Program-made: the position numbers and the translations under genes
In this document: piece by piece, positions 9,785 through 62,668 of the stretch
Numbering within the stretch: position 1 is the first letter of the stretch
How the letters are laid out: every line of letters starts with the position of its first letter
Assembly: GCA_000004695.1 (NCBI GenBank)
Contig: CM000155.2
Coordinates: 2,208,001-2,272,000, forward strand
Reading direction: 5' to 3'
DNA from: Dictyostelium discoideum
Taxonomy: Eukaryota
DNA length: 64,000 bases
The notes under the pieces: model-generated
The model's database searches: none
Told to the model about the DNA's origin: nothing
Seen by the model: the letters and a program-made list of their open reading frames with translations, nothing else

Positions 9785-10480
9785 CGCATATCTTACACAC
9801 ACTATATATAATAGGGGTTTTAATAAATATTCTGATGAATTTGTAAATATTATTTATGGTAGAATTGAAAATTATTGTGTCAAAACGTTAAAAAGAAAAA
9901 AACCCTTCAAATTCAAATGAACAATTGGAGTGGAATAGTGACTCTGGTATGTTAATTTCTTTCCATATTTTAAAATAATAATTATAATAATTTATTTATT
10001 ATTATTTTTTTTTTTTAAAAAATGGTTATATTAATTATTAATAATACTTTTTTTTTATTTTTTTTTAAAAAAAAAAAAAAAAAAAAATTTATGGTTTCAC
10101 CAAAAATTTGAATTTATTTAATACACTGAGGGAGAATTATTTCCAAACCATACCGATGGTGAGGTGAAAAATGAATATAAATATTTTTTTTTCAATTTTA
10201 ATATTTACAAATGATTGTTGTGTTAGCTTTAAGGGAGGTCTCATCTGAGTTAGATTCTTTATAAAAGTTAATAACTTACAACTAGTGAAAATTACAATAG
10301 TAAATCCAGAACCTGGAATGGCATTAATATCACACACTTTTTCATGTATATTTAATAATTACATTTGGCCAAAAACAAACAATCAGATCAGATTATCTAA
10401 ACAAACTATCTCAAGATTTTATAATTATGTTGAACAGTTTTTTTTGGGGGTAAATTAGCCTATTTAGACAAAAAAAAAAA
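9484..10480 (+). pseudogene. decayed tandem duplicate of the 8174..9210 2OG oxygenase gene
   Basis: All three exons, both introns and the 3' UTR of the upstream gene are recognisable in the same order at about 80-90% identity. The ATG is destroyed (gtgattatccc versus gaaatgattc). Exon 1 has several indels. Exon 2 has a frameshifting extra A in aaaaaaaccc. Exon 3 is scrambled after GGEV. Confidence 0.7.
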
Positions 10481-11038: not shown

Positions 11039-11284
11039 TAAAAACTTACTAAAAAAAAAAAAAAAAAAATAATAATAATATTAGGTTATAATTATTTTTT
11101 AAGGATTGGGTTGGAAAGTGAAAATGATCTTTTGGTTTACCAAACACACAACTCACACACCAAATTAAAAAAATTTTTAAAAAATTATGAAATAGATATA
11201 TTAATTTTAGATTTTTACATCCCAAAAATTTACAAACATCATCCTTCCACCCAAAATTCAAAAATCAACAAACTTGTTTTATAA
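10813..11284 (+). CDS. stress-responsive dimeric alpha/beta-barrel (Dabb, PF07876-like) protein, paralog 1; join(10813..10978,11085..11284)
   Basis: Exon 1 encodes MEESSNKSLEHIVFFMLKPFEN…SERSK and ends at a G|GTAAT donor in phase 1. Exon 2 follows TTAG| and gives GYNYFLRIGLESENDLLVYQTHNSHTKLKKFL… That matches the Dabb pattern: LEHIV…LKxK, then G(Y/F)…F.SxEDL..Y..H..H. Total 121 aa. Confidence 0.7.
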
Positions 11285-11415
11285 AATCAATTAAATAAAA
11301 AAAATTATTAACTAATCTCAAAATAGCTAAAATAGGAAAAAAATAGAAAAAATAAAAAAAAGTACTTGAAATTTTATTGATTATTATAAAAATAAAAAAA
11401 TACTTTATTTGTTTA

Positions 11416-46359: not shown

Positions 46360-47926
46360 ATGGATTCAAAAAATAAGGGTAGGAATGAAGTAAGCACAAA
46401 TGGTAAAACTTCACCACCTCAATCAACTACTCCAACTACTACCACCACCACCACTACAACAACATCATCATCATCATCCTCAGTGGGAAATAAAAGAAAC
46501 GAAAGTCCAACAATTTCATCCAGTGGAAATCAGTCACCAAAATCAATGGAAAATGATAATGAAAATGAGGAAGATGAAGTTATGGAAGAGGAAGAAGTGG
46601 ATGATAATGAAGAGAATGGTAATGATGAGGATGCACCACACCCATTCTTTGATGATGATCAAGTGGACGACGATGAGGATCTTAACGATCCAACCATTCA
46701 AAATGGTATCAATAGAAAAGATGAAACAGAGGAAGCAAGAAATGAGAGATTAGAATCAATTAGATTGGAAAAAGAGAGATTAAAACAAATTAGAGAACAA
46801 CAACGTAAACAATTACAAGAACTTGAAAAGAATCAAAGACAACAATTACAAGAGGATAAAGAGAAATCTGCAAATGCAAGATTAAAATATTTATTGGAAA
46901 GAACTGAAATCTTTACACATTTCGTTTCAAATAGTAATAATAATAATAATACAAAAAAAACAAAAACAAAATCACCAGTTTTATCATCGTCATCAGCATC
47001 ATCATCAAATAACAATAACAATAACAATAACAATGGTTCAATAGTTTCAAGTACCCCAACAAAAAGAGGTCATATAACAGAAGAAGCGGAAGATGAAGCT
47101 ATTATGAATGAAACAATGGAAGAAGAAGAACCACATTCTTTTAACTTTTTTACATCAAGTCCACCATGTATGTTACACACACAATAATAATTCATACCAT
47201 ATAAATTTTTATTATTAATCTTTTTAAAATTTTTTTTTTTTTTTTAAATTATAGATATTAAGTCAGGTACAATGAGAGATTATCAAGTTTATGGTTTAAA
47301 TTGGCTAATTCAATTATATGAAAGAGGTATTAATGGTATTTTAGCGGATGAAATGGGTTTAGGTAAAACATTACAAACAATTTCACTTTTGGGTTATTTA
47401 TCTGAATATAAAGGTATTAGAGGTCCACATTTAATTATTGCACCAAAATCAACACTTTCAGGTTGGGCAAAAGAATTTACAAGATGGTGTCCATTTTTAC
47501 GTGTCGTTAGATTTCATGGTAGTAAAGAAGAAAGAGTAAATAGTTTAAATTATATAGATATTGTTAAATAATCAATAGAGAGATATATATACTAAATTAC
47601 TTTTATTATTATAAATATTTAAACATAAATATATATAGGAAGATATTAAAAAGAATCAATTAATTTTTAAGAAATTTGATGTTTGTATAACTACATATGA
47701 AGTTGCTATTAGAGAGAAATCAACATTTAAAAAGTTTAGTTGGAGATATATTATTATTGATGAAGCACATCGTATTAAAAATGAAAATTCAGTACTTTCA
47801 AAAGGTGTTAGAATGTTTAATAGTCAATTTAGATTATTAATTACTGGTACTCCATTACAAGTAAGTATAAATATATATATAAATATATTTATAATAAATA
47901 ATTAACTTTTATTATTATTATTATTA

Positions 47927-48020
<94 letters not shown>

Positions 48021-50387
48021 TTATTTATTAAGAATAATTTACATGAATTATGGTCATTATTAAACTTTTTATTACCAGATGTTTTTTCATCATCAGATGA
48101 TTTTGATAAATGGTTTGATTTAGCAAATAATACAGAGAATCAACAAGAGGTTATTGATAAATTACATAAAGTTTTAAGACCATTTTTATTAAGAAGAATT
48201 AAAACTGAAGTAGAGAAATCATTACCACCAAAGAAAGAGATTAAATTATTTGTTGGTTTATCAACGATGCAAAAAGAATGGTATAAAAGATTACTTTCAA
48301 AGGATTTGGATGCAGTTGTTGTTGGAGCAAAAGGTAATACAGGTCGTGTTAGATTATTGAATATTTGTATGCAATTAAGAAAGGCATGTAATCATCCTTA
48401 CCTTTTCGATGGTGCAGAGGAAGAACCATACACAACCGGTGAACATTTAATTGACAATAGTGGAAAGATGGCATTATTGGATAAACTATTGAAAAAGTTG
48501 AAAGAAAGAGGATCAAGAGTTTTAATCTTTTCACAAATGTCGCGTATGTTGGATATTTTGGAGGATTATATGTTGTATCGTGGTTATAAGTATGCAAGAA
48601 TCGATGGTTCTACCGAATCGATCGTTAGAGAGAATTCAATTGAAAATTACAATAAACCAGGTTCAGACTTATTTGCATTCCTTTTAACCACCAGAGCCGG
48701 TGGTCTTGGTATCACTTTGAATACAGCCGATATCGTTATCTTGTTTGATAGTGATTGGAACCCACAAATGGATCTTCAAGCACAAGATCGTGCCCATCGT
48801 ATTGGTCAAACTAAACCAGTGACAGTCTACCGTTTTGTGACAGAGAATTCAATGGAGGAGAAAATGGTAGAGAAAGCAGAAATGAAACTTCAATTGGATG
48901 CATTGGTAATTCAACAAGGTCGTCTCGTTGAGGCAAATAAAAATGCAAAACCTGAAGAACTCTTGGCAATGCTTAGATTTGGTGCTGATGATATCTTTAA
49001 GAGTAAATCATCAACCATCACCGACGAGGATATCGATTCCATTCTCAAGAAAGGTGAAGAGAAAACTGAACAACTCAATAGCAAAGTTAAGGATTTAGCC
49101 TCCAATCCATTGAAATTCCAATCCGATGGTAATCTATACATGTTTGATGGCGTAAACTATAAGAATTCTCATTCCAGTGCAGGCTATTGGGCAGAGACAT
49201 TGAAACGTGAGAGAAAAACAGTCGCAGGTACAGTGGCAGCCGATGAAGAAATCGCTCCTGCAAAACCAGTGGTAAAGAGAGAAAGACGTTTCAATAAACC
49301 AAAGCAGACACCAATCTATGATTTCCAATTCTATCCACCAAGATTAACTCAACTCTATGAGAAAGAGAATGAAGCCTACAATAAAAAGGTGGAATGGTAC
49401 GACCAAAAAGATAAAGGTGAACTTCCAGAGGAAGAGGAGGAACCAGACTTTGGTGATCTATCAAAGGAGGAACAAGATCTCAAAGAAAGATTAATTAAAA
49501 CCGGTGGTTTTGGTGATTGGTCAAAAACTGATTTCCGTACTTTTATTCGTGGTTGTGAATTGTATGGTCGTAAGGCTTATCAAAGTATCGCTGAAGAGGT
49601 TCAAACTAAAACTGAAAAAGAGGTTCAACAATATTCTCAAGCATTTTGGAAAAAACACTCTGAGGTTGCCGATCATGAGAAATTGGTTGCACGTATTGAA
49701 AAGGGTGAAGAGAGAATCATGAAATATAAAGAAACTCAAGACTCTTTAAATTATAAGATCAACAAATATAAAAATCCTTGGATTGAATTAAAGATTCAAT
49801 ATGGTTTGAAAAAGAATAAAAACTATAACGACGAGGAGGATATATTTTTGGTTTGTATGTGCCATCGTTTGGGTTATGGTGCCTTTGAAGAATTGAAAGA
49901 GGAAATTAGAAAATCACCACAATTCCGTTTCGATTGGTTCATTCAAACTCGTACTTGTCAAGAATTGAAAGCTCGTGTCGATCAATTACTAAAATATATA
50001 ATCAAAGAACATCAAGAGGAAGTGGAAGCTGCAAAAGAAGCAGAGAAAAGAAAGAAAGAAAAAGAGAAATTAAAATTGGCAGCCTCTGGTGTCACCGCCT
50101 CTAAAGCAAAGACTGAATCTCCAAATAAAACACTTGGTAAGAGAAAAGATGCTCCACCATCAAAACCTCCTGCTAAACCATCTAAAGCTTCTGCTAAATC
50201 AAAACCTGCTCCAAAATCAAAGACTTCCACAACTACAAAACCTACTACTACAAATGGTAGAGGTAAAAAGAAACCTGTTGAAGAAGAAGAACCAATGGAA
50301 GAGGAAGAGGAAGAAGAAGAAGAGGTTGAAGAGGAAGAGGAAGAAGAAGAAGTTAAAGTTCCACTCAAAAAGAGACAAGTTAAATAA
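46360..50387 (+). CDS. isw: ISWI-type SNF2 chromatin-remodeling ATPase (SNF2_N, helicase C, HAND-SANT-SLIDE); join(46360..47167,47255..47535,47639..47860,48033..50387)
   Basis: It is colinear with human SMARCA5/ISWI: [49 protein letters not shown]; [13 protein letters not shown]…LLITGTPLQ|[18 protein letters not shown]; [12 protein letters not shown]…SGKM; [12 protein letters not shown]; [20 protein letters not shown]; and SANT/SLIDE-like [29 protein letters not shown]. Three introns have GTATGT, GTAAAT and GTAAGT donors. Intron 3 contains a roughly 130-bp (ATT)n tract. Phases are consistent. Total 1221 aa, with an acidic E/K-rich tail. Confidence 0.9.
47905..48030 (+). repeat. (ATT)n about 40 units, intronic (ISWI intron 3)
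   Basis: Direct reading; nearly perfect with two single-base interruptions. Confidence 0.9.
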
Positions 50388-50614: not shown

Positions 50615-50686
50615 GTTTCGATAGCTCAGTGGAAGAGCAAGCGACTGCAAATCGTTAGGTCGCCAGTTCAATCCTGGTTCGGAACT
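50615..50686 (+). tRNA. tRNA-Cys (anticodon GCA)
   Basis: The 72-nt sequence GTTTCGATAGCTCAGTGGAAGAGCAAGCGACTGCAAATCGTTAGGTCGCCAGTTCAATCCTGGTTCGGAACT folds as a cloverleaf. It has a 7-bp acceptor stem (one G-U pair), A-box TAGCTCAGTGG, anticodon loop CTGCAAA with GCA at positions 34-36, and B-box GTTCAATCC. A TTTTT Pol III terminator follows 6 nt downstream. Confidence 0.8.
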
Positions 50687-50785
50687 TTCTTTTTGGGGAA
50701 ATCAATCTTGTTATTGTTTCATATTAAAAAGTTTTCTTTTTGAAATTTTAATATGTTATTAGATTCTTTTTTAAAATTTTGGTTT

Positions 50786-51081
50786 GTTAGTTTGTTTGAA
50801 ATCTTCCCCAATCTCATAGGAATAATAGCACACCAATTATGGAAGATAATCTGTCACAAATTGTTCAACACTGATGAAAGCAAACCAGAGCCAAAATTCG
50901 AACAAAAGGTCATAGAAACAGAATTACTAAATCTCATCGAAACTGAAAAATTCATCACACTAAAGAAAATCAAACACGACGAAGCAATACTAAAAAATAC
51001 AAATCAAGATCTTCACAAATACAAATTCAACAAAGCCTGGCAAACCCCAGCAGCTCCGAACCCTCTTCCAATTTAAGTAGT

Positions 51082-51144
<63 letters not shown>

Positions 51145-51261
51145 GTTTAAAAAATTTAATACAATTGAATAATAAAAATAAAACCGTTTAACAAACACCG
51201 CCGAAAAGACACAAGGACATTCCTTGAAGGTCTGATCACAGGTAAAAAAAAAAAAAAAAAA
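50786..51261 (+). mobile_element. 5'-truncated non-LTR retrotransposon fragment (TRE3-like by position) flanked by a 14-bp target-site duplication
   Basis: The repeat-unit flank sequence …aaattttggtttgttagtttgt is interrupted at 50785 and resumes at 51262. The 14-mer GTTTGTTAGTTTGT is duplicated at 50772-50785 and 51262-51275. The insert carries an open, relatively GC-rich frame from its first base (…IFPNLIGIIAHQLWKIICHKLFNTDESKPEPKFEQKVIETELLNLIETEKF…AWQTPAAPNPLPI*) that stops 9 nt before an (A)64 tract. A further 110 bp follows, then a terminal (A)18. The insertion point lies about 100 bp downstream of the tRNA-Cys 3' end, which is the characteristic TRE3 integration distance. Confidence 0.5.
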
Positions 51262-51299
51262 GTTTGTTAGTTTGTGAGATATTTATTTTTATTAAATTT

Positions 51300-51651
51300 T
51301 TAATTTCCACCTCTTAATACAAAATGGAGTGTGGATTCTTTTTGAATGTTATAATCTGATAAAGTACTACCTTCCTCTAATTGTTTACCAGCAAAAATAA
51401 ATCTATGTTGATCTGGTGGAATACCTTCTTTATTTTAATCTTACTATTAAATGGACTGTGGATTCCATTCGAATGTTATAATATAATAAAGTATGAACAT
51501 CCTCTAATTGTTTACCTGCAAAAATTAAAATTTGTTGATCTGGTGGAATACCTTCTTTTTCTTGAATTCTAGATTTAACCTTTTCAATAGTATCTGAATT
51601 TTTAACTTGTAATTCGAAAGTTTTACCAACTAATGAAACATAAATATACAT
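51300..51651 (-). pseudogene. decayed head-to-tail di-ubiquitin-like remnant (UBL copy 1 plus a C-terminal half-copy)
   Basis: Minus-strand ORF 51430-51651 encodes [73 protein letters not shown], which is ubiquitin-like but lacks the GG end. Immediately 3' and out of frame, 51300-51429 encodes …[42 protein letters not shown]. That is a second, more canonical ubiquitin C-terminal half ending RGG-N. Confidence 0.5.
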
Positions 51652-52171
51652 GTTGCTGTTGTTATTTTTATAATAATAATAATAATAATTAAAGTGTTTT
51701 ATAAAATAATTTGTTGGTTTGGTTTAATTGAAAATAAAAAAAAAAAAAAACCTTTTAATTTTATAAATAAAAATTTATCTCCATTGTTATTACTACTCTT
51801 GCAAGAGACATTCAAAAAAAAAAAAAAAATCTTAAATTTGTAAGCATGACTCATAATTAAAAAAAAAAAACAAATTTCTCCAATTTTCCAAATTTATTGA
51901 GGGAACTCTAAAAAAAAAAAAAGGCAAAATTTAATAAATTGGGTACCTCGACAAAAAAAAAATATAAAATTAAAAGTAATCATTTATTATTTAATTAATG
52001 TAAATGACCTAATAATGATTATAATCAATCACTTTTTCTAAATAAAATTTTTTTATTATCACTTGTTGAAAAGAGATTACAAAAAAAAAAAAAAAAAAAA
52101 AAATTAAAAAAAAAAAAGAAAAATTATTTACTTAACCACGATAAAAAAAATAAAATAAAAATTAAACCAAA

Positions 52172-52252
52172 CTAAATCAAATCAAATCAAATCAAATCAA
52201 ATCAAATCAAATCAAATCAAATCAAATCAAATCAAATCAAATCGAATCTAAT
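52172..52252. repeat. (AAATC)n pentanucleotide microsatellite, about 16 units
   Basis: Direct reading of aaatcaaatcaaatc…; the last units are mutated (cgaatctaatcaaattaaatt). Confidence 0.9.
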
Positions 52253-53063
52253 CAAATTAAATTAAACAAAATCAAAAAAAAAAAAAAAAAAAAAAAATTA
52301 ATTATATAAAAAAATAAAATTGTATAAAAACAAACTATACTTACTGAACCTACAAATTTTTATTAATCATAGAAAGAAATTTTTATGTTATCAAATATCA
52401 TTATTTTTTTTTTTTTTTTTATTTTTTTTTTTTTAATATGAATTTGTAATTTTATTAAAATGTTATTTTAAAAAATGTGGTTGCTAAATTAATTGAAACT
52501 TTTTTAATATAAAAACTTATTGTGTTTTTTTGTGTTTATTTGATTTTTTTGTTTTTATTTTTTTTCTCACCTAAATAAAAAAAAAATAAAAAATAAAATA
52601 AAAAATTAATGAAAAAGGTCGAACACCGGTTGTAGGTTTTGTTGCATCTGTAAAATCAATTATTTATTCTTATAATCAATTATTCATTCACAATCACCGG
52701 CCTCATCAAATTCATTTACATGACCCCATTAGATTTCAATTTGTTTAATCAGATTATTTAGATATGTACATATCACAAAAAGGAATTCCAAAGGTGTATA
52801 ACAAATCACCAGTACATCAATTATCTACATTACTATCATTTTTATAAACATTTTACCATTTACTCCCTTATTTCTGTGATATAGAATTTAGGTTACAATC
52901 AATTACGATAATCCATCATTATGAATTATAATTCCACGTCTATATTTAAATTTTAATTTTTTAATATGAATTTGGATTCTTTTTTTTTTAAATTTTGGTT
53001 AGTTGGTTTGTAAGATTAAAAGGAAATTAATAAACTAGAAGATGTTTAGTTTTATTTAATTTT

Positions 53064-53297
53064 TTAATTTCCTCCTCTTAATCTAAGTGATAAATTGATT
53101 GTGGAACCCGGTTGAATTTTTAATTCTCCTAAAGTACGACCATTCTCTAATTTTTTACCTAAGAAAGATAATGTTTGTTGATCAATTGGAACACCTTCTC
53201 TTCCTTCAATTACAGCTTTAACCCTTTCAATAGTATCTGTTTCTTTAAATTCGTATGAGACGGCGGAATTACCAACTTTTTTAACAAAAATTTGCAT
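53064..53297 (-). CDS. divergent ubiquitin/NEDD8-like protein with a -RGG-N C-terminus (intact copy within the repeat array)
   Basis: 77-aa ORF: [77 protein letters not shown]. It has a beta-grasp ubiquitin fold (MQIFVK start, I44-equivalent context, LRLRGG) with a one-residue C-terminal extension, as in ubiquitin-like modifier precursors. It is about 45% identical to ubiquitin. Confidence 0.6.
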
Positions 53298-53856
53298 GCT
53301 GTTGTCGTTTCAATAATTATAATAAAAATAATAATTATAATTATAAAAATAAAAATTATAAAAATAATAATAATAATAAAAATAATAATAATAATAATAA
53401 CAATAATAATAAGGTTTTATTTATTATTTATTATTTATCATTACCATTGAAAATAATTATAAACCTTTTTCTATTTTTTTTTTTTTTTAAAATTTTTTAA
53501 AAAATTACTAAAAAGAGTTAATTTCATTTTTTTAATTTTTAGTCATTATTATGTGAAAAATAATTTTTATTTTTTATTTTTGTGGGATAATAATAAAATT
53601 TTTTAAATTAACTTTATCAATAGGCATGATTCATAATTTTTTGTGGTGTTGGAATTAAAAAAAAATAAAATGCGAGCGATTACTTTTTGAGGTTTTAAAA
53701 AAAAAGTTGCAAACAACTAACCATTGCCTCATAAATTACTTTTCACCGTTTTAATTCAAAAATTATAATATCTGCAAGATCAACCTAAAAATTTCTAACA
53801 AAATAAAAAATTGGAAATTTTTAAAATATTTAACTCCATTATTTCAGTGATAGAGA

Positions 53857-53940
53857 GTTTAGGTTACAATAAATATTATTCATCATGAATAATATACCGC
53901 GTTTAATAATTCTTCATCTGTATTTGATTGTAACCTAAAC
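53857..53940. repeat. perfect 14-bp inverted repeat (GTTTAGGTTACAAT / ATTGTAACCTAAAC) separated by 56 bp, inside repeat block P
   Basis: The left arm at 53857-53870 and the right arm at 53927-53940 are exact reverse complements. The loop itself contains a near-palindrome, TATTATTCATCATGAATAATA. Degraded versions occur in the other P blocks (52880-52905 and 54770-54830). Confidence 0.7.
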
Positions 53941-54451
53941 CCTCTACCCCACTTACAAGTATATCTAACTTTTAAAATAGAAATTAATTAAAAATTAAAT
54001 AATTAATTAATTGAAAAAAGAGTATCAAGTTAAAGACACTCTATCCGCTACGAATAAAATAAATTTTAAAAATAAAAAAAAAAAATATTATTTTTGAATT
54101 ATTTTTATATTTTTTTTATATAATTTTTATATTAATAGATAAATAACCTTTTCTTAAACAAAATTTCACTACAACTATATGGCCAATGATATCTGGTAAA
54201 AGAAAAATTTTTTTTTTTTTTTTTAAAAATTTTAATTCAAAAATTAATTTTCTGTATAGATTATTTTAAAATACAAGTTTTCAATTAAATAGCAACATAT
54301 CTATTAATAACTTTGGTGATGAGGTTAAATTTTAAAATTTTATTTTTTAATATGAATTTGGATCCTTTTTTTTAAAATTTTATTTTGTTTGTAAGATTAA
54401 AAGGAAAATAATAAACAAGAAGATGTTTAGTTTTATTAAATTTTTTATATA

Positions 54452-54660
54452 AAACATCTTAATTTGGATTTTAAACTGACTGTGGAATCTGGATAAATTT
54501 TATATTAGTCTAAAGTACGACCATATTTGTTGATCTGTTGGAGTACCTTCTTTTGTTGAATTTTAGCTTTAACCTTTTCAATAGTATCTGTTTCAGTAAC
54601 TTGGTATGTGCTGGTTTGTATACCAACTATCTGGACAAAAAGTTTCATGTTGCTGTTGTT
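54452..54660 (-). pseudogene. ubiquitin-like pseudogene with an internal deletion (UBL copy 3 of the array)
   Basis: The minus strand reads MKLFVQIVGIQTSTYQVTETDTIEKVKAKIQQKK|VLQQINKYGRTLD*. The N-terminal half matches UBL copy 2 and ubiquitin (TETDTIEKVKAKIQ). The frame then collapses and the GG terminus is lost. The 3' flank (block F) is conserved. Confidence 0.5.
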
Positions 54661-55233
54661 GTTTTAAAATTATAATTATAGGTTTTTATAAAAATAAAAA
54701 ATAATTTGAAAAAAAAATAAAAAATTGGAAATTTCAAAAATATAATTTAAATACCTTATTTCAGTGATTGGATGTTTAAGTTACAGGTGATGAATTAAAT
54801 ACCTCATTTAATAATTAGTCATCTGTATTTGATTATAACCCTATGAACATTGGAAAGAGTGCATTCATTAATTCAAGTTAAAGACACTCTGTTCACTATG
54901 AATAAAATAAGTATTAAAATAAAAAATAAAAAATTAAAATTAAAAAAATTATTAATTGAGCTCAATTCGAATAATAATTAAGATACTATAGTAATATTTA
55001 ATAACTTTTTTTTTTTTTTTTTTAATATTATTTGCAAACCCAAAAAAAAAAAAAAAAAAAAAAAAAAAATAAATAAATAAACTCATTTTATAAACAATAT
55101 TGACTTTTGGTGTCCATAAAATAACTGGAAAGATTTAAAAAAAATTAAAAATGTGGAATGAGATCAATCTATTACTATATTTAAAATTAAAAAATTAAAT
55201 TGGAATTGTGCGATAAAAAATACCCTCTAAAAT

Positions 55234-55278
<45 letters not shown>

Positions 55279-56368
55279 TCATTTACATTAATTAAACAAT
55301 CTTTATTTAGGTTATTTTTAAAAGTAAATTCAAACTATTAATAAAAAGATAAAATCGGATTTCGATAATTTTAATTTTATAAATATATTTTTTAGTATTG
55401 TTTTTTTTTTTTTAAGTTATTTTATATTATTTACAACTAACATTTTTTTTTTTTTTTAAGTTATTTTATATTATTTTATATTATTTTTATATTATTTTTA
55501 TATTATTTTTATATTATTTTTATATTAATAGATAAATCACCTTTTCTTAAACAAAATTTCACTACAATTATATGGCTAATGATATAAATCTAATCAAAGA
55601 AATTTTTTTTTTTTTTTTTTTTTTAAAAAATAATAGTTTTCGTTTTAAATTAAAAATTAATTTTCTGTATAGATTATTTTAAAATACAAGTTTTCAATTA
55701 AATAACAACACATCTATTACCAAGTTTGTTAAAAAATTACCAAGAAATAAATTAAAAAATATTTGTGGTTATAGTGTGTATGTAAATGCTTAAAAAAAAA
55801 AAATAAAGCTAAGGAAAAAAAAAAAAATCTACAAACCACACATATTTTAACACACTCACACACACACGCATACACACTAAAAACTATTTTTACTATTGAA
55901 ATATATAAAGACATAATCAAAAATAACAACAACTACCATTCAAGATGAATCGTAATTTTTTTTTTTTTAAAAACGTCTTCCACATTTTATATGTTAAGAC
56001 TATTTAATATATATTTTATTTAATTAATTTTAAAATTTTTAAAATAATGGATTATATTATTGTTATTTAAAGGAAAAAAATAAATAAATAAATAAAAATA
56101 ATAGTTAAAAATAAAAAACAAATAATAAAGTAATAATAAAAAAAAAAAAAAAGGTTATTTTATTTTAAACAATTCGATTGAATAAAATCAATTTTCCTTA
56201 AAAAAAAAAATAAAAATAAAAAAATAAAAAAAAGAATTAAATTTTATAGAATCCTATAAAAATTTTGTAATATTATTATTTATTTTTTAATTTATTTATT
56301 TAATTATTTATTTTTTTTCTTATTTTTAAAAAAACTAAAAAATAAATAAAAAAAAAAAAAATAATTGA

Positions 56369-56408: not shown

Positions 56409-58712
56409 GAAATATAAATAAAAAATTATTTTACTTTTTAATTCAATTAATAACAATTCTAATTGTTTTATCAGATGGTAAATATTTAAATTATATTTTT
56501 AATATTTTATATGATTTTTTTATTAACTATTATTTTTTAAAAAGATTCATATAATAGTTTATTACCACTTGAAAAGGATATAGCAGTTATAATTAGGGAT
56601 TTATCACCACAAACCAATCCAGATTTTGAAATTGATAATCCAAATCGTGTTATAAAAGGGTTAGTTAAGGATCAATTGAATGAAGAAGATCGTAGTCCAA
56701 TTTATTGTTGTGGAGATGATCATGCACCAAATATCGATAGAAATAGATTTGTAATACATAATCAAAGTACATTTTATAGTTGGTTTCATAATCAAAAGGA
56801 TGTTAATATTGTAATTTCCAAATCATTAGTATTCACTAGAAATGTTACATCTGATGATCCAAGAATTTACTCTTATGAAAGTGATAATTTCTTTCCAATT
56901 GATAAGATGGGTTTTGAAGCAGATTCATACAATGGACCAATAAAAAAGAATCAATGGAAGGATAGATGGGGATTTCCAAGAAATTTCCATTTCTGCTTAG
57001 AGTTACATGCTTCATTTTTCTATATTGGTGGTGAATTATTCAGTTTCAAAGGTGATGATGATGTTTGGGTATTCATTGATAATCGTTTGGTATTGGATTT
57101 GGGTGCACCACATGATGTGTCTGGTCAAAATGGTCAAGGATCTGTATATTTGGATAATTTAGGTTTAGAGAAGAGTAAGAGTTACAATTTCGATTTCTTC
57201 TATTGTGAGCGTCATACAACCGATTCTCATATTATGGTTGAGACAAGTATAGATTTCAAATGTAAATACTATGACTATTGTGGTGTTTGTGAAGGTATGG
57301 GTAAATGTTGTAATCCTTCAGAGTGTTATGGTAGTTTGCCTGCATGTGGCCATTTCGAATGTCCAGGTTTAACTGATATCGCTCCAAATGTTGATTGGCG
57401 TTATCATTGTAAAGTTGTAGTTCCAAATTGTTCCCTCTCTGATACATTCTGTGTTAAACATCAATGTGACCCTGATAGTAAACAATGTGTACCATCCACT
57501 GATTATCAACCATGTCAAGGTAAATCCAATAGTTCTTGTATCGAAGCCCGTTGTGATGATAAAATGGGTGGTTGTTACTTAAAGAGTAAACCAAAGGATC
57601 AATCTAAAAATGATACAACTTGTTATCGTGAAACTTGTAATGAAGATACTAGCACTTGGGAGTATAAAGCACTTTGTGAAGATGATTCTGATAAATGTAT
57701 TTCAAAGAAATGTATTCCAAATTCTGGTTGCTCCAGTAGCGTTGTTGATTGTAATGATAACAATCATTGTACCATCGATAGTTGTTCAAAGGATACTGGT
57801 TGCATTCATGACCCAATTGAAAATTGTGTACCATGTGTTGAAGGCAATAAATGTTCAGAATCCAGTGATAAATGTCAACAATTGGAATGTAATCCATACA
57901 ATAGTACAACGGAATGTATTGATCGTACTAAAAAGAATTGTGATGATTCAAATGCTTGTACTATTGATACTTGTAATGGTGAAAGTGGTGAATGTGAAAA
58001 TACTCCAAAACAATGTCTTGCTAAAAATAAATGCTCCACTGCACGTTGTAACTCTAAAACAGGCCAATGTGATAATATCTATCATTGTGATGATGGTATA
58101 CTTTGTACTCTCGATAAATGTTCAGAAAATGGTACTTGCTATTATGAAGCAAATCCATGTGATGATGGTGATCAATGTACAATTGACATTTGTTTGAATA
58201 CTCTAACTGAAACTGGTGGTTGCTCTCACAGTGCTCGTGTTTGTGAACCAAAAAATTCATGTTTTACAAGTCATTGTGATAAAAAGTTGGGTTGTGTTCA
58301 AACTCCAATTGAATGCCCAGTTGAAGCTTTCTGTTTAATTAGTTTCTGTGATAATTCAACAAAGAAATGTATGACCGCTGATAGACCATGTATTCCTGAT
58401 GATCCACGTTGTCAATATGGTGTTTGTGATAACGATACCAAAGCTTGTATTTTTAAAGACTATGATCCATTACCATTTAAATGTCAATCTGCTGCTGTTA
58501 AAGCTGCCGTTGGTGTTGGTGCTGGTGCTGCAGCTGGTATTGCCATTGGTGGTGCAATTGCATTAGGTCTTGCTGCTTTTGGTGGTAAACGTGGTTATGA
58601 TGCTTGGAAATCCTCAAGAGATAATCAAATCCAAACTTCTTCTGAAAATCCATTATATAATCCAAATCCAAATCAAGGTGATAATCCACTTTATGCTGCT
58701 AATAATTCTTGA
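56405..58712 (+). CDS. PA14-domain, Cys-rich-repeat type I membrane glycoprotein (psi / prespore-cell-inducing-factor-like family); join(56405..56477,56545..58712)
   Basis: Exon 1 is a signal peptide, MGNINKKLFYFLIQLITILIVLSD, ending at a G|GTAAAT donor in phase 1. Exon 2 follows AAAAAG|. It has a PA14-like region (…FHFCLELHASFFYIGGELFSFKGDDDVWVFIDNRLVLDLGAPHD…YNFDFFYCERH) and then about 20 Dictyostelium-type Cys repeats (C.IDTC…, …CDDG..CT.D.C). It ends with a Gly/Ala-rich transmembrane helix (AAVGVGAGAAAGIAIGGAIALGLAAFGG) and a short tail, KRGYDAWKSS…NPLYAANNS. Total 746 aa. Confidence 0.75.
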
Positions 58713-61064: not shown

Positions 61065-61866
61065 ATGTCAGAAGGAGATTGTAGGTTTATTTAGTTAATA
61101 AATAAAAAAAAAAAAAAAAAAAAAAAAAAATCAAGTGTTTCTAATTTCATTTTTAAAAGTAGGTTTTGCATCTTTAGGATTAAATGAACAACTAATAAAT
61201 AATATAAAACGATATGGAATTACAAAATTAACACCTTTTCAAATGGAGGTAATAAAAGAAATTAAAGAAAACAGTAATGTTATTGTTGATTCAATTGAGG
61301 GCACAGGTAGGACAATAAGCTTAATTATTGGTACATTAGATAAGATTGATGAAACAAAACAACAACAAGAACAAGAACAACAAGAACGACAACAAACAGA
61401 TCAACAATTTTCATTTCCTCAAATTTTAATGATCTTACCAACAAAAGAGTTATCACAAACAACAAAAGTTATTTATTCATCTTTAGGAGGTGGTGAGAAT
61501 AATAATAATGACTTTAAAGTACTATCATGTATTGGTGGTGTAAAAATATCAATGGATATTGAAATTTTAAAAAAAGGTAATACTCAGATTTTATTAGGTA
61601 CACCAGGAAGAATATCTGACCTATTTTCAAGAAAAAGGTTCGATACAGATAATATTAAAATATTGGTTTTCGATGAACTTGATGAAATCCTTTCAAGAGG
61701 TTTTGAATGTCAATTGGAAGATATTATTAAACCTCTAAATAATAACAATAATTTGCAAATTATTGTTTCAACATCAGGAATTAACGAATTAACTTCAAAT
61801 TTTATAAATACTTTTATAAAGATTCCAAAGATCATTAAATCACAACAAGAACCATATAAATTTTAG
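61065..61866 (+). CDS. truncated eIF4A-like protein: DEAD-box RecA1 domain only, with the catalytic motifs substituted (likely pseudo-helicase); join(61065..61080,61163..61866) with the 5' exon tentative
   Basis: Colinear with eIF4A domain 1: GFASLGLNEQLINNIKRYGITKLTPFQMEVIKEIKENSNVIVDSIEGTGRTISLIIGTL is the Q-motif plus motif I, but GTGRT replaces GSGKT. ILMILPTKELSQ, CIGGVK and LLGTPGRISDLF follow. VFDELDEILSRGF is motif II with DELD replacing DEAD. IIVSTSG has STS replacing SAT. The ORF stops at …IPKIIKSQQEPYKF, the domain 1/2 boundary, with no downstream RecA2 exon. The main ORF lacks an ATG (GTG at 61135). A 16-nt first exon (ATGTCAGAAGGAGATT) joined via GTAGGT…AAAAGTAG in phase 1 would give MSEGDC-FASLGL…. 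Confidence 0.55.
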
Positions 61867-61985
61867 TTTACTTTTTTTTTTTTTTTAAAAAAATAAAAAA
61901 CACATTAAATATATTTTTTTTTTAATTTATTTATTGGTTTATTTGATATTAAATGTTTTCAAACTATTTATGGATATATTTTAAT

Positions 61986-62312
61986 TTATTGTTTTGTTTG
62001 GTTAATTTGATTTCGAATATTATTTAATTGATCATTGGTATTTTCCATACTCTTTATTAAAGATCTTGACAATATATCCATGATACGTGCTTTTTTATTT
62101 TCAATTTCTAATAATTCTTTCATAAATTGTGTATATTTTTGAAATTGTCTCTTATTGAAACTCAATTGTTCCTCCAAAATTTCATTCATAGTTACTAATT
62201 GTCTATTTTTATTATTAGCTTGGTTATCTAATAAATTATCTAAATTTAAAATCTTGATGTCGTTGCTATTTAAAAAATATAAAAGATAACTTTTATTTGA
62301 GTCAGATGACAT
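61986..62312 (-). CDS. hypothetical small coiled-coil protein (108 aa)
   Basis: ATG-initiated ORF: MSSDSNKSYLLYFLNSNDIKILNLDNLLDNQANNKNRQLVTMNEILEEQLSFNKRQFQKYTQFMKELLEIENKKARIMDILSRSLIKSMENTNDQLNNIRNQINQTKQ. Composition is not low-complexity and it has heptad periodicity. No recognisable family. Confidence 0.4.
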   Translation of the reverse strand: MSSDSNKSYLLYFLNSNDIKILNLDNLLDNQANNKNRQLVTMNEILEEQLSFNKRQFQKYTQFMKELLEIENKKARIMDILSRSLIKSMENTNDQLNNIRNQINQTKQ

Positions 62313-62668
62313 AAATTGTAAAATAAAATTTTAAAAAAAAAAAAAGTTCTTTCTTTTTTAAAAGAATTTCTTTTTTTTTTAATAATAGTAATTTATATCT
62401 GTAATCCATTTTTAATAAAATCTTTATATCTATATTATTTTTTATTCTTTATTTATTTTTTATTTTTTTTTATTTTTTTTTTATTTTTTTTTTAAACAAC
62501 AATTTAATTTTATTTATTTTAAAAAAAATAAAAAAAAAAAAAAAACCCAATCCTTGAGGGGGTAACCATTTTTTTATTTTCATATCATTTTGTGTATTTT
62601 TGAGTGTTCATTTTATCAACTAAATAAAAATTAAATAATTTAAAAAAATATAAAAAAAAAATTGAAAA

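Follow-up and report, generated by a model that had tools for sequence, protein, structure and literature searches.

The ubqO locus

The window analysed here, a stretch of 64,000 nucleotides (nt) of the Dictyostelium discoideum genome (GCA_000004695.1, contig CM000155.2, positions 2,208,001 to 2,272,000; 22.4% G+C), carries a small array of ubiquitin-derived genes, one of which, ubqO, is the subject of this report. Its open reading frame (ORF) runs from ATG to TAA and fills exactly window positions 53064–53297 on the minus strand (77 codons plus TAA, 77 amino acids), with no stop, frameshift or lost start to disable it; the plus-strand frame over the same interval is riddled with stops. An exact protein look-up identified the product as DDB_G0292908 of D. 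discoideum AX4 (XP_629436.1; UniProt Q54CI0), annotated as a 'hypothetical protein', and a published table gives the dictyBase name of this gene as ubqO, 'ubiquitin O' (PMC6198379, supplementary file 5). The annotation, the name and expression values within a public supplement are thus already known. What appears to be undescribed is that ubqO is one of the top stalk-specific transcripts and the sole intact member of its family, that its product has lost the surface used by the ubiquitin-activating enzyme (E1) and by ubiquitin receptors, and that the gene evolves at a neutral rate.

The encoded protein, UbqO, begins with MQIFVK and ends with LRLRGG followed by a single residue, Asn77, both termini being exactly those of ubiquitin. 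It matches the Pfam ubiquitin family PF00240 far beyond chance (73.9 bits against a cut-off of 25.4, E = 9e-21, profile positions 1–72 of 72). An earlier note on this DNA, made from the letters alone, had singled out the same termini and extra residue as the architecture of a GG-X precursor with a ubiquitin fold, and both points were borne out by the minus-strand ORF, its LRLRGG-N-stop end and the PF00240 match. The identity to ubiquitin, which that note had put at about 45%, was higher: UbqO aligns without gaps to ubiquitin residues 1–76 and is identical at 41 of the 76 positions (54–56%), with 35 replacements, figures that take human ubiquitin as the reference, apart from one tblastn comparison with a D. 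discoideum ubiquitin sequence.

A decaying array of ubiquitin-derived units

Searching the window with tblastn returned four segments resembling ubiquitin, each on the minus strand, which stringent self-BLAST and MAFFT alignment placed in three head-to-tail units with homologous 5′ and 3′ flanks. The pairing of units B and C rests on the stringent scoring, as permissive self-BLAST was flooded with AT-rich low-complexity matches. The decaying repeat array that had been proposed around the ORF is therefore real, with ubqO in the middle unit of three. Its features are as follows, with the evidence for each in brackets.

53064–53297, minus strand: coding sequence of ubqO, DDB_G0292908 (ORF translation, exact protein look-up, PF00240, AlphaFold2 model, stalk-cell mRNA)
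52945–54315, minus strand: repeat unit B, a homologue of unit C that contains ubqO together with its 3′ flank and about 1 kb of sequence on the 5′ side (self-BLAST, MAFFT)
54331–55728, minus strand: repeat unit C, a pseudogene and its flanks (self-BLAST pairs, segment-by-segment divergence)
54457–54648, minus strand: the unit C pseudogene, sister copy of ubqO (tblastn, sequence, codon alignment)
about 50728–52940, minus strand: repeat unit A, with ubqN and a frame-shifted fragment, broken by a 466-nt retroelement-like insert (self-BLAST, MAFFT)
51430–51651, minus strand: ubqN, DDB_G0292984, copy A1 of unit A (ORF, tblastn, protein look-up)
51303–51434, minus strand: copy A2, a frame-shifted C-terminal half of ubiquitin, residues 33–77 (tblastn, self-BLAST)
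50728–50796, minus strand: distal part of the unit A 3′ flank, cut off by the 466-nt insert (self-BLAST, empty-site allele, target-site duplication)
54085–54315, minus strand: distal upstream block in unit B, putatively a regulatory region common to the units (self-BLAST, segment divergence)
55478–55728, minus strand: distal upstream block of unit C, its counterpart (self-BLAST)

Units B and C pair over 52945–53373 with 54331–54723, 53797–53935 with 54711–54840, 54025–54086 with 54873–54934, and 54085–54315 with 55478–55728 (stringent self-BLAST). The severed flank of unit A was found by permissive self-BLAST, in which 50738–50795 matches 52951–53011 (79%) and 50728–50801 matches 54327–54402 (71%).

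All three of the other copies in the window carry lesions in the tail. The unit C pseudogene has deletions of 1 nt and 29 nt and an in-frame stop (TAA) where ubiquitin has residue 58, and its diglycine is gone (..KLRCFI*). ubqN encodes 73 amino acids, is 65% identical to ubiquitin, has a one-codon deletion and ends ..LIVRLK*, with no diglycine. Copy A2 directly follows ubqN, is 85% identical to ubiquitin and ends VLRGGN*, tail codons 73–74 having been deleted; it arose by a tandem duplication with an offset of 127 nt (51312–51431 against 51439–51558, 85% identical). Residues V8 and G9 are common to all three N-terminal copies, and Y15, E19, T20 and P63 to B and C, which gives the tree (A,(B,C)) and implies that the founder was already off the ubiquitin consensus. 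Judged from the aligned copies, the GGN end of A2 and B is ancestral.

Identity between the distal upstream blocks of B and C is 84–88%, compared with a raw value of about 75% for the coding sequences. They gave no Rfam match and contain no long ORF, and a tRNA was the only match in an Rfam search of the array. These blocks may be a shared stalk-specific regulatory element or may merely reflect slow, A/T-saturated change.

A search with ubqN uncovered a second D. discoideum locus in GCA_054859355.1, where two more units of ubiquitin origin, decayed and bordered by homologues of the unit A flanks, lie beside kinesin and ribosomal L19e genes (contig JBTAPG010000074.1, searched as L002; units at 10209–10391 and 11170–11389). 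One of these units is 89% identical to ubiquitin, carries a frameshift and ends ..VLR*RGRN, a decayed form of the GGN end. The gene model ACTFIW_001180 (128 amino acids), which joins both pseudogene pieces, is probably an annotation artefact. As far as their sequences tell, then, the ubqO family is a dispersed birth-and-death family of tandem mono-ubiquitin units, all other members seen being dead or truncated, and ubqO is its last intact member.

ubqO is a late stalk-cell transcript

We took expression values from the stalk-specific sheet of supplementary file 5 of Kin et al. 2018 (PMC6198379), in which TopHat2 served for read mapping and HTSeq for counting and the time course comes from Parikh 2010, so that the developmental and cell-type values are independent datasets. 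At 0, 4, 8, 12, 16, 20 and 24 h, ubqO stood at 0, 0, 1.3, 1.4, 1.5, 39.9 and 75.6, and the values for prespore and prestalk cells were 1.8 and 0.5. In mature cell types it reached 6,223.8 transcripts per million (TPM) in stalk cells, with 13.8 in cup cells, 6.2 in spores and 0 in vegetative cells. Each of the stalk markers ecmB (4,990 TPM), staB (3,961), staA (854) and ecmA (320) lay below ubqO in stalk cells, and the 20 and 24 h values of staA (31 and 82) and staB (61 and 73) were close to the 40 and 76 of ubqO. RNA sequencing, which the earlier note had named as a check, thus revealed strong and cell-type-specific transcription (6224 TPM in stalk cells, late induction in Parikh 2010), and ubqO is not a silent relic.

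The signal does not stem from cross-mapping of canonical ubiquitin reads, since the polyubiquitin transcripts of ubqJ and ubqH are at their highest in cup cells (2,798 and 1,020 TPM; 52 and 152 in stalk cells) and ubqJ is at 23 TPM in vegetative cells, where ubqO is at 0. In mature stalk cells ubqO mRNA is far above these two genuine ubiquitin transcripts. The neighbouring ubqN is likewise expressed late and in stalk cells only (196 TPM there, about 0 in other samples), so a promoter specific to stalk cells was already there in the founder of the array; ubqO mRNA is about 32 times as abundant as ubqN mRNA in stalk cells.

The main text of Kin 2018 mentions neither ubqO nor ubqN, and a literature text search found no paper naming DDB_G0292908 or ubqO. 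ubqO was likewise absent from the parts examined of the supplements of PMC7078664, PMC9117722, PMC8808424, PMC4931340 and PMC6650454.

UbqO keeps the ubiquitin tail and has lost the Ile44 patch

The AlphaFold2 model of UbqO has a mean predicted local distance difference test score of 90.3 and superimposes on ubiquitin (1UBQ) with a template-modelling (TM) score of 0.94 and a root-mean-square deviation of 1.0 Å (Foldseek). UbqO is thus predicted to adopt the β-grasp fold, although the input alignment is mostly ubiquitin and the model speaks for compatibility with the fold more than as independent proof.

Against this background, the residues of UbqO fall into two sets. K6, K27, K48, R54, L71, R72, L73, R74, G75 and G76 are kept, and L8V, K11S, K29V, K33R, R42T, I44S, K63P, H68N, V70S and 26 other positions are changed. 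Four of the seven lysines (K11, K29, K33 and K63) are gone, and of the chain-forming pair K48 and K63 only K48 remains. The surface corresponding to the hydrophobic Ile44 patch of canonical ubiquitin reads V8, S44, N68 and S70. Among the arginines that guide the tail into the E1, R72 and R74 are kept and R42 is a threonine. The earlier note had suggested examining the equivalents of L8, I44 and H68 and had described 'G/V-type' substitutions at some of them; none of the three is conserved, and the substitutions are of another kind (L8V, I44S and H68N, joined by V70S and R42T).

These positions matter for activation and recognition. UBA1 contacts ubiquitin through the Ile44 patch and through tail contacts of Arg42, Arg72 and Arg74, with Arg72 as the specificity determinant, which is alanine in NEDD8, while FAT10 and ISG15 have a 'polar patch' and use other E1s (E1 review, 2025, PMC12355090). 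Besides the E1, conjugating enzymes (E2s), deubiquitylases and most receptors make use of the Ile44 patch (PMC12355090, PMC4862753), and in a deep mutational scan of yeast ubiquitin R42, I44, K48, G75 and G76 were the sensitive positions in the dimethyl sulfoxide (DMSO) control (PMC4862753).

UbqO superficially resembles NEDD8 in its length, in its GG-X precursor format and in an identity to ubiquitin of about 50%, which raises the question of orthology to a known modifier of that kind. We rejected this candidate, which we consider hardly conceivable: UbqO is 38% identical to human NEDD8 compared with 54–55% to ubiquitin, has Arg72 and not Ala72, is without the hydrophobic patch that NEDD8 keeps, and has both derived residues and flanking DNA in common with the ubiquitin-derived copies nearby, with no orthologues found elsewhere.

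ubqO evolves at a rate close to neutral and keeps an open frame and tail

The sequence and expression of ubqO suggest that it is an expressed, weakly constrained, lineage-specific ubiquitin variant gene, whose product may be conjugated; we put the probability of this reading at about 0.5. Of the two fates that the earlier note had offered, a lineage-specific modifier or a recent pseudogene not yet broken, the lineage-restricted variant in a decaying array is the one we favour, whereas a silent dead copy does not fit 6224 TPM in stalk cells. There remains a transcribed pseudogene, in which a triplicated, stalk-specific mono-ubiquitin gene became redundant, decays neutrally and has kept an open frame by luck, with a strong inherited promoter and a product invisible to selection. 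This is a serious contender, placed closely behind the first, and the tests below bear on both readings.

Several observations weigh against constraint on ubqO and are as a pseudogene would have them. The Nei–Gojobori ratio of nonsynonymous to synonymous divergence (dN/dS) was 1.3–3.4 for all copy pairs, pairs of dead copies included, and is inflated by the extreme AT bias, under which synonymous positions have already gone to A/T and change slowly. The Ka/Ks check that had been proposed for this locus was thus misleading in its naive form, exceeding 1 between dead copies, although the neutral pattern it was meant to detect is what other tests point to. In its place we used lineage counts polarised with unit A as the outgroup, simulated neutral ratios of nonsynonymous (N) to synonymous (S) changes, and a comparison with the flanks stratified by base class. 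Across the 64 codons compared, 20 polarised changes fall on the ubqO lineage (17 N, 3 S) and 19 on its dead sister in unit C (15 N, 4 S). Under the observed mutation spectrum the neutral expectation for N/(N+S) is 0.76, and ubqO has 0.85 (p = 0.44), in a test whose power is limited by there being only 20 polarised changes. Unstratified, divergence between B and C is higher in coding sequence than in the flanks (24.5% against 14.9%, p = 0.003). After stratification, A↔T changes at W/W columns amount to 9.6% in coding sequence and 9.3% in flanks (p = 1.0), and columns with G or C differ at 47% and 39% (p = 0.30). The substitution rate and pattern of ubqO are thus indistinguishable from neutral decay. 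Of the refuting pair set out in the earlier note, silence together with neutral substitution, the first half is contradicted by the expression data and the second agrees with these tests. Positive selection, considered as a source of the excess coding divergence, was rejected, as the excess is gone after stratification by base class.

Further points against the favoured reading come from outside the substitution counts. Expression is not proof of function, since ubqN is disabled as a modifier, having no GG end, and yet has the same stalk-specific pattern. Two of the five DMSO-sensitive positions of yeast ubiquitin, R42 and I44, are changed in UbqO, so that a pseudogene would account for the loss of these essential contacts along with those at H68, V70 and L8. 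Two of the three copies here, and both copies at the second locus, are dead. Among about 15 billion proteins (5.8 billion clusters) the closest to UbqO is only about 57% identical, and the orthologue search was empty; in the exhaustive search of representatives the best 150 of 22,668 matches were all polyubiquitins, with scores summed over their units, which makes that search blind to a single-domain orthologue.

The syntenic locus in GCA_054883475.1 is AX4-like, with 1 mismatch in 10.4 kb and an identical ubqO, where no gene is called, and so says nothing on variation; an exact-protein index gave no record of ubqO or ubqN from other strains. Variation within the array is, however, in line with a pseudogene. 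In SRR28564542 (Logan), contig L001, aligned to 51262–52103, differs from unit A by 7 mismatches and 2 indels over 843 nt, D38Y in ubqN among them, whereas contig L004, aligned to 61108–62477 some 9 kb away, is 100% identical to AX4 over 1,370 nt. The array is therefore locally hyper-polymorphic (p about 0.001 by binomial). That sample yielded unit A but no ubqO, an absence without weight given how sparsely the collection covers such assemblies. A neutral transcript that costs nothing is, moreover, plausible in cells near death.

With no rate-based sign of purifying selection on ubqO, the sole argument for constraint is the retention of its ORF and tail. We simulated neutral decay by placing about 30 substitutions on the inferred B/C ancestor. 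An open frame with its ATG was kept with a probability of 0.08–0.15, an open frame with an unchanged LRLRGG tail with 0.01–0.04, and an open frame with both tail and MQIFVK unchanged with 0.003–0.009. Absence of indels contributes a further factor of about 0.1–0.6, given 7 indel events to 91 mismatches in the flanks, 2–3 in copy C and none in ubqO relative to ubiquitin. The neutral probability of ORF, tail and no indel together is about 0.001–0.02 per copy and about 0.003–0.07 for any of three copies, so that even with three copies allowed for, this outcome is unlikely under strict neutrality; the statistics for ORF, tail and N terminus are partly post hoc, as the copy was flagged for its intactness, which tempers their weight against a pseudogene.

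Two other results speak against decay by luck. Replacements on the ubqO lineage tend to be conservative (mean BLOSUM62 score +0.62, compared with −0.36 on the C lineage and −0.34 under neutrality; one-sided p = 0.078), and a decaying promoter would not be expected to hold ubqO mRNA at some 32 times that of ubqN and above that of ecmB. Retention of the hydrophobic core, by comparison, was rejected as evidence of selection, because the dead copies A1 and C also keep nearly all core positions hydrophobic, probably through AT-biased mutation of NTN codons that stay hydrophobic.

A model for UbqO in stalk cells

The favoured reading, a weakly constrained variant gene, would work as follows. The units of the array would share a late promoter specific to stalk cells. 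UbqO would be made as a precursor whose Asn77 is clipped by a ubiquitin C-terminal hydrolase, as in the capped last unit of polyubiquitin, and the freed tail, with Arg72 and Arg74, might still address the ubiquitin E1. As the I44 patch and R42 are lost, activation would be expected to be inefficient and any conjugates unreadable to receptors of the I44 patch. UbqO could be neo-functionalising toward a 'polar-patch' modifier, or it could be kept only for its fold and tail. Selection on ubqO would be weak because its action would be confined to terminal stalk cells, which do not reproduce, and to the occasional social generation, as expected from the relaxed selection on conditionally expressed social genes, the 'Red King' result, of de Oliveira et al. 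2019 (PMC6650454); redundancy with paralogues would weaken it further.

A stronger version, in which UbqO is a stalk-specific 'polar-patch' modifier that is clipped at Gly76 by a deubiquitylase (DUB) and conjugated through ubiquitin's tail determinants, we regard as unlikely. On that version its marks would be invisible to readers of the I44 patch, such as proteasome receptors, components of the endosomal sorting complexes required for transport (ESCRT) and most DUBs, and might, for instance, stabilise proteins or send them elsewhere as cells become vacuolated and undergo programmed death. An ..RGG tail leaves ubiquitin's diGly remnant after trypsin, so diGly proteomics would wrongly score UbqO conjugates as ubiquitin.

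The product might instead function without being conjugated, as a competitor or decoy for DUBs or the E1, a chain cap or a stabilising partner, or the gene might act at the level of RNA. The very high mRNA level fits such a role, as does a tail that is kept while the I44 patch and the R42 used by UBA1 are lost, making efficient activation doubtful; with K63, K11, K29 and K33 gone, most chain types would be unsupported. What this leaves unexplained is the survival of an exact Gly75-Gly76 with Arg72 and Arg74 while every paralogue lost them, and for a role of the RNA there is no Rfam match and nothing in the sequence, the ORF being the conserved feature. We consider these possibilities improbable.

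Neighbouring features

The insert that splits the 3′ flank of unit A (50797–51262, plus strand) is 466 nt long, has an A18 tail at its end and lies between the two copies of a 14-nt target-site duplication, GTTTGTTAGTTTGT (50783–50796 and 51263–51276). A tRNA-Cys(GCA) gene (50615–50686) is found some 110 nt upstream of the insert, whose 107-amino-acid ORF gave no Pfam match and whose site is empty in contig L001 of SRR28564542. The insert looks like a 5′-truncated, tRNA-gene-targeted non-long-terminal-repeat retroelement that is polymorphic between strains, in a position that we take to be TRE3-type.

On the other side of the tRNA-Cys gene, immediately upstream of it and of the ubq array, are the exons of an ISWI-type chromatin remodeller (46360–50387, plus strand; SNF2, Helicase_C, HAND, SANT/Myb and SLIDE domains), whose ORF ends in a long acidic poly-Glu tail. 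Beyond unit C, at a distance of about 950 nt and divergent from the array, an ORF with PA14 and Dicty_CTDC repeats (56676–58712, plus strand) is psiN by the gene-ID order of the Kin 2018 table. psiN is also in the stalk-specific sheet, at 366 TPM in stalk cells and with a peak of 417 at 16 h, and the ubq array may lie in a stalk-active chromatin neighbourhood.

Implications

If UbqO is made and used, a genetically tractable organism would have a ubiquitin variant reserved for a single somatic cell type that sacrifices itself, and with it direct access to the re-tuning of ubiquitin-type signalling in developmental cell death; diGly 'ubiquitylation' sites from late development might then carry another modifier. 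If it is unused, ubqO would be a clean case of a very highly transcribed gene drifting neutrally, owing to expression only in non-reproductive cells of occasional social generations, with a bearing on the 'Red King' model. Either way ubqO, being above ecmB, would serve as a compact stalk marker or promoter, and in a genome of 22% G+C the upward bias of Ka/Ks is not to be read as positive selection.

Comparison with known systems

With canonical ubiquitin, whether the capped last unit of polyubiquitin or a mono-ubiquitin gene, UbqO shares the PF00240 match, a gap-free 76 residues, MQIFVK, LRLRGG plus one residue, K6, K27, K48, R54, R72 and R74, and a predicted β-grasp with a TM score of 0.94 to 1UBQ. 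It differs in replacing 35 of 76 residues of a protein almost invariant across eukaryotes, in being without the I44 patch, R42, K11, K29, K33 and K63, and in being expressed late and in stalk cells only, whereas ubqJ and ubqH peak in cup cells. NEDD8 is likewise a single ubiquitin-fold domain made as a GG-X precursor with moderate identity to ubiquitin, but at 38% identity to UbqO it combines Ala72 with a patch, where UbqO combines Arg72 with a lost one.

The C-terminal domains of FAT10 and ISG15 resemble UbqO in their ubiquitin fold, GG end, polar surface at the I44 patch and inducible or cell-state-specific expression. FAT10 and ISG15 themselves have two domains, use dedicated or dual-specificity E1s (UBA6, UBA7) and are conserved in vertebrates, whereas UbqO has one domain, is confined to D. 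discoideum and shows no measurable purifying selection. We know of no dedicated E1 for UbqO.

A conjugated ubiquitin variant from a 'pseudogene' has a precedent in UbKEKS, the product of human UBB pseudogene 4 (Dubois et al. 2020, PMC7066184). UbKEKS is 4 positions off ubiquitin and keeps I44 and R42, whereas UbqO is 35 off and has lost both; the former has protein-level and knockout evidence, and the latter is known from its gene and mRNA alone. Both are nevertheless ubiquitin-derived, pseudogene-like and transcribed, with a diglycine tail. As with UbKEKS, conjugates of UbqO could have a fate unlike that of ubiquitin's and, given the shared RGG end, would be indistinguishable from ubiquitylation in diGly proteomics.

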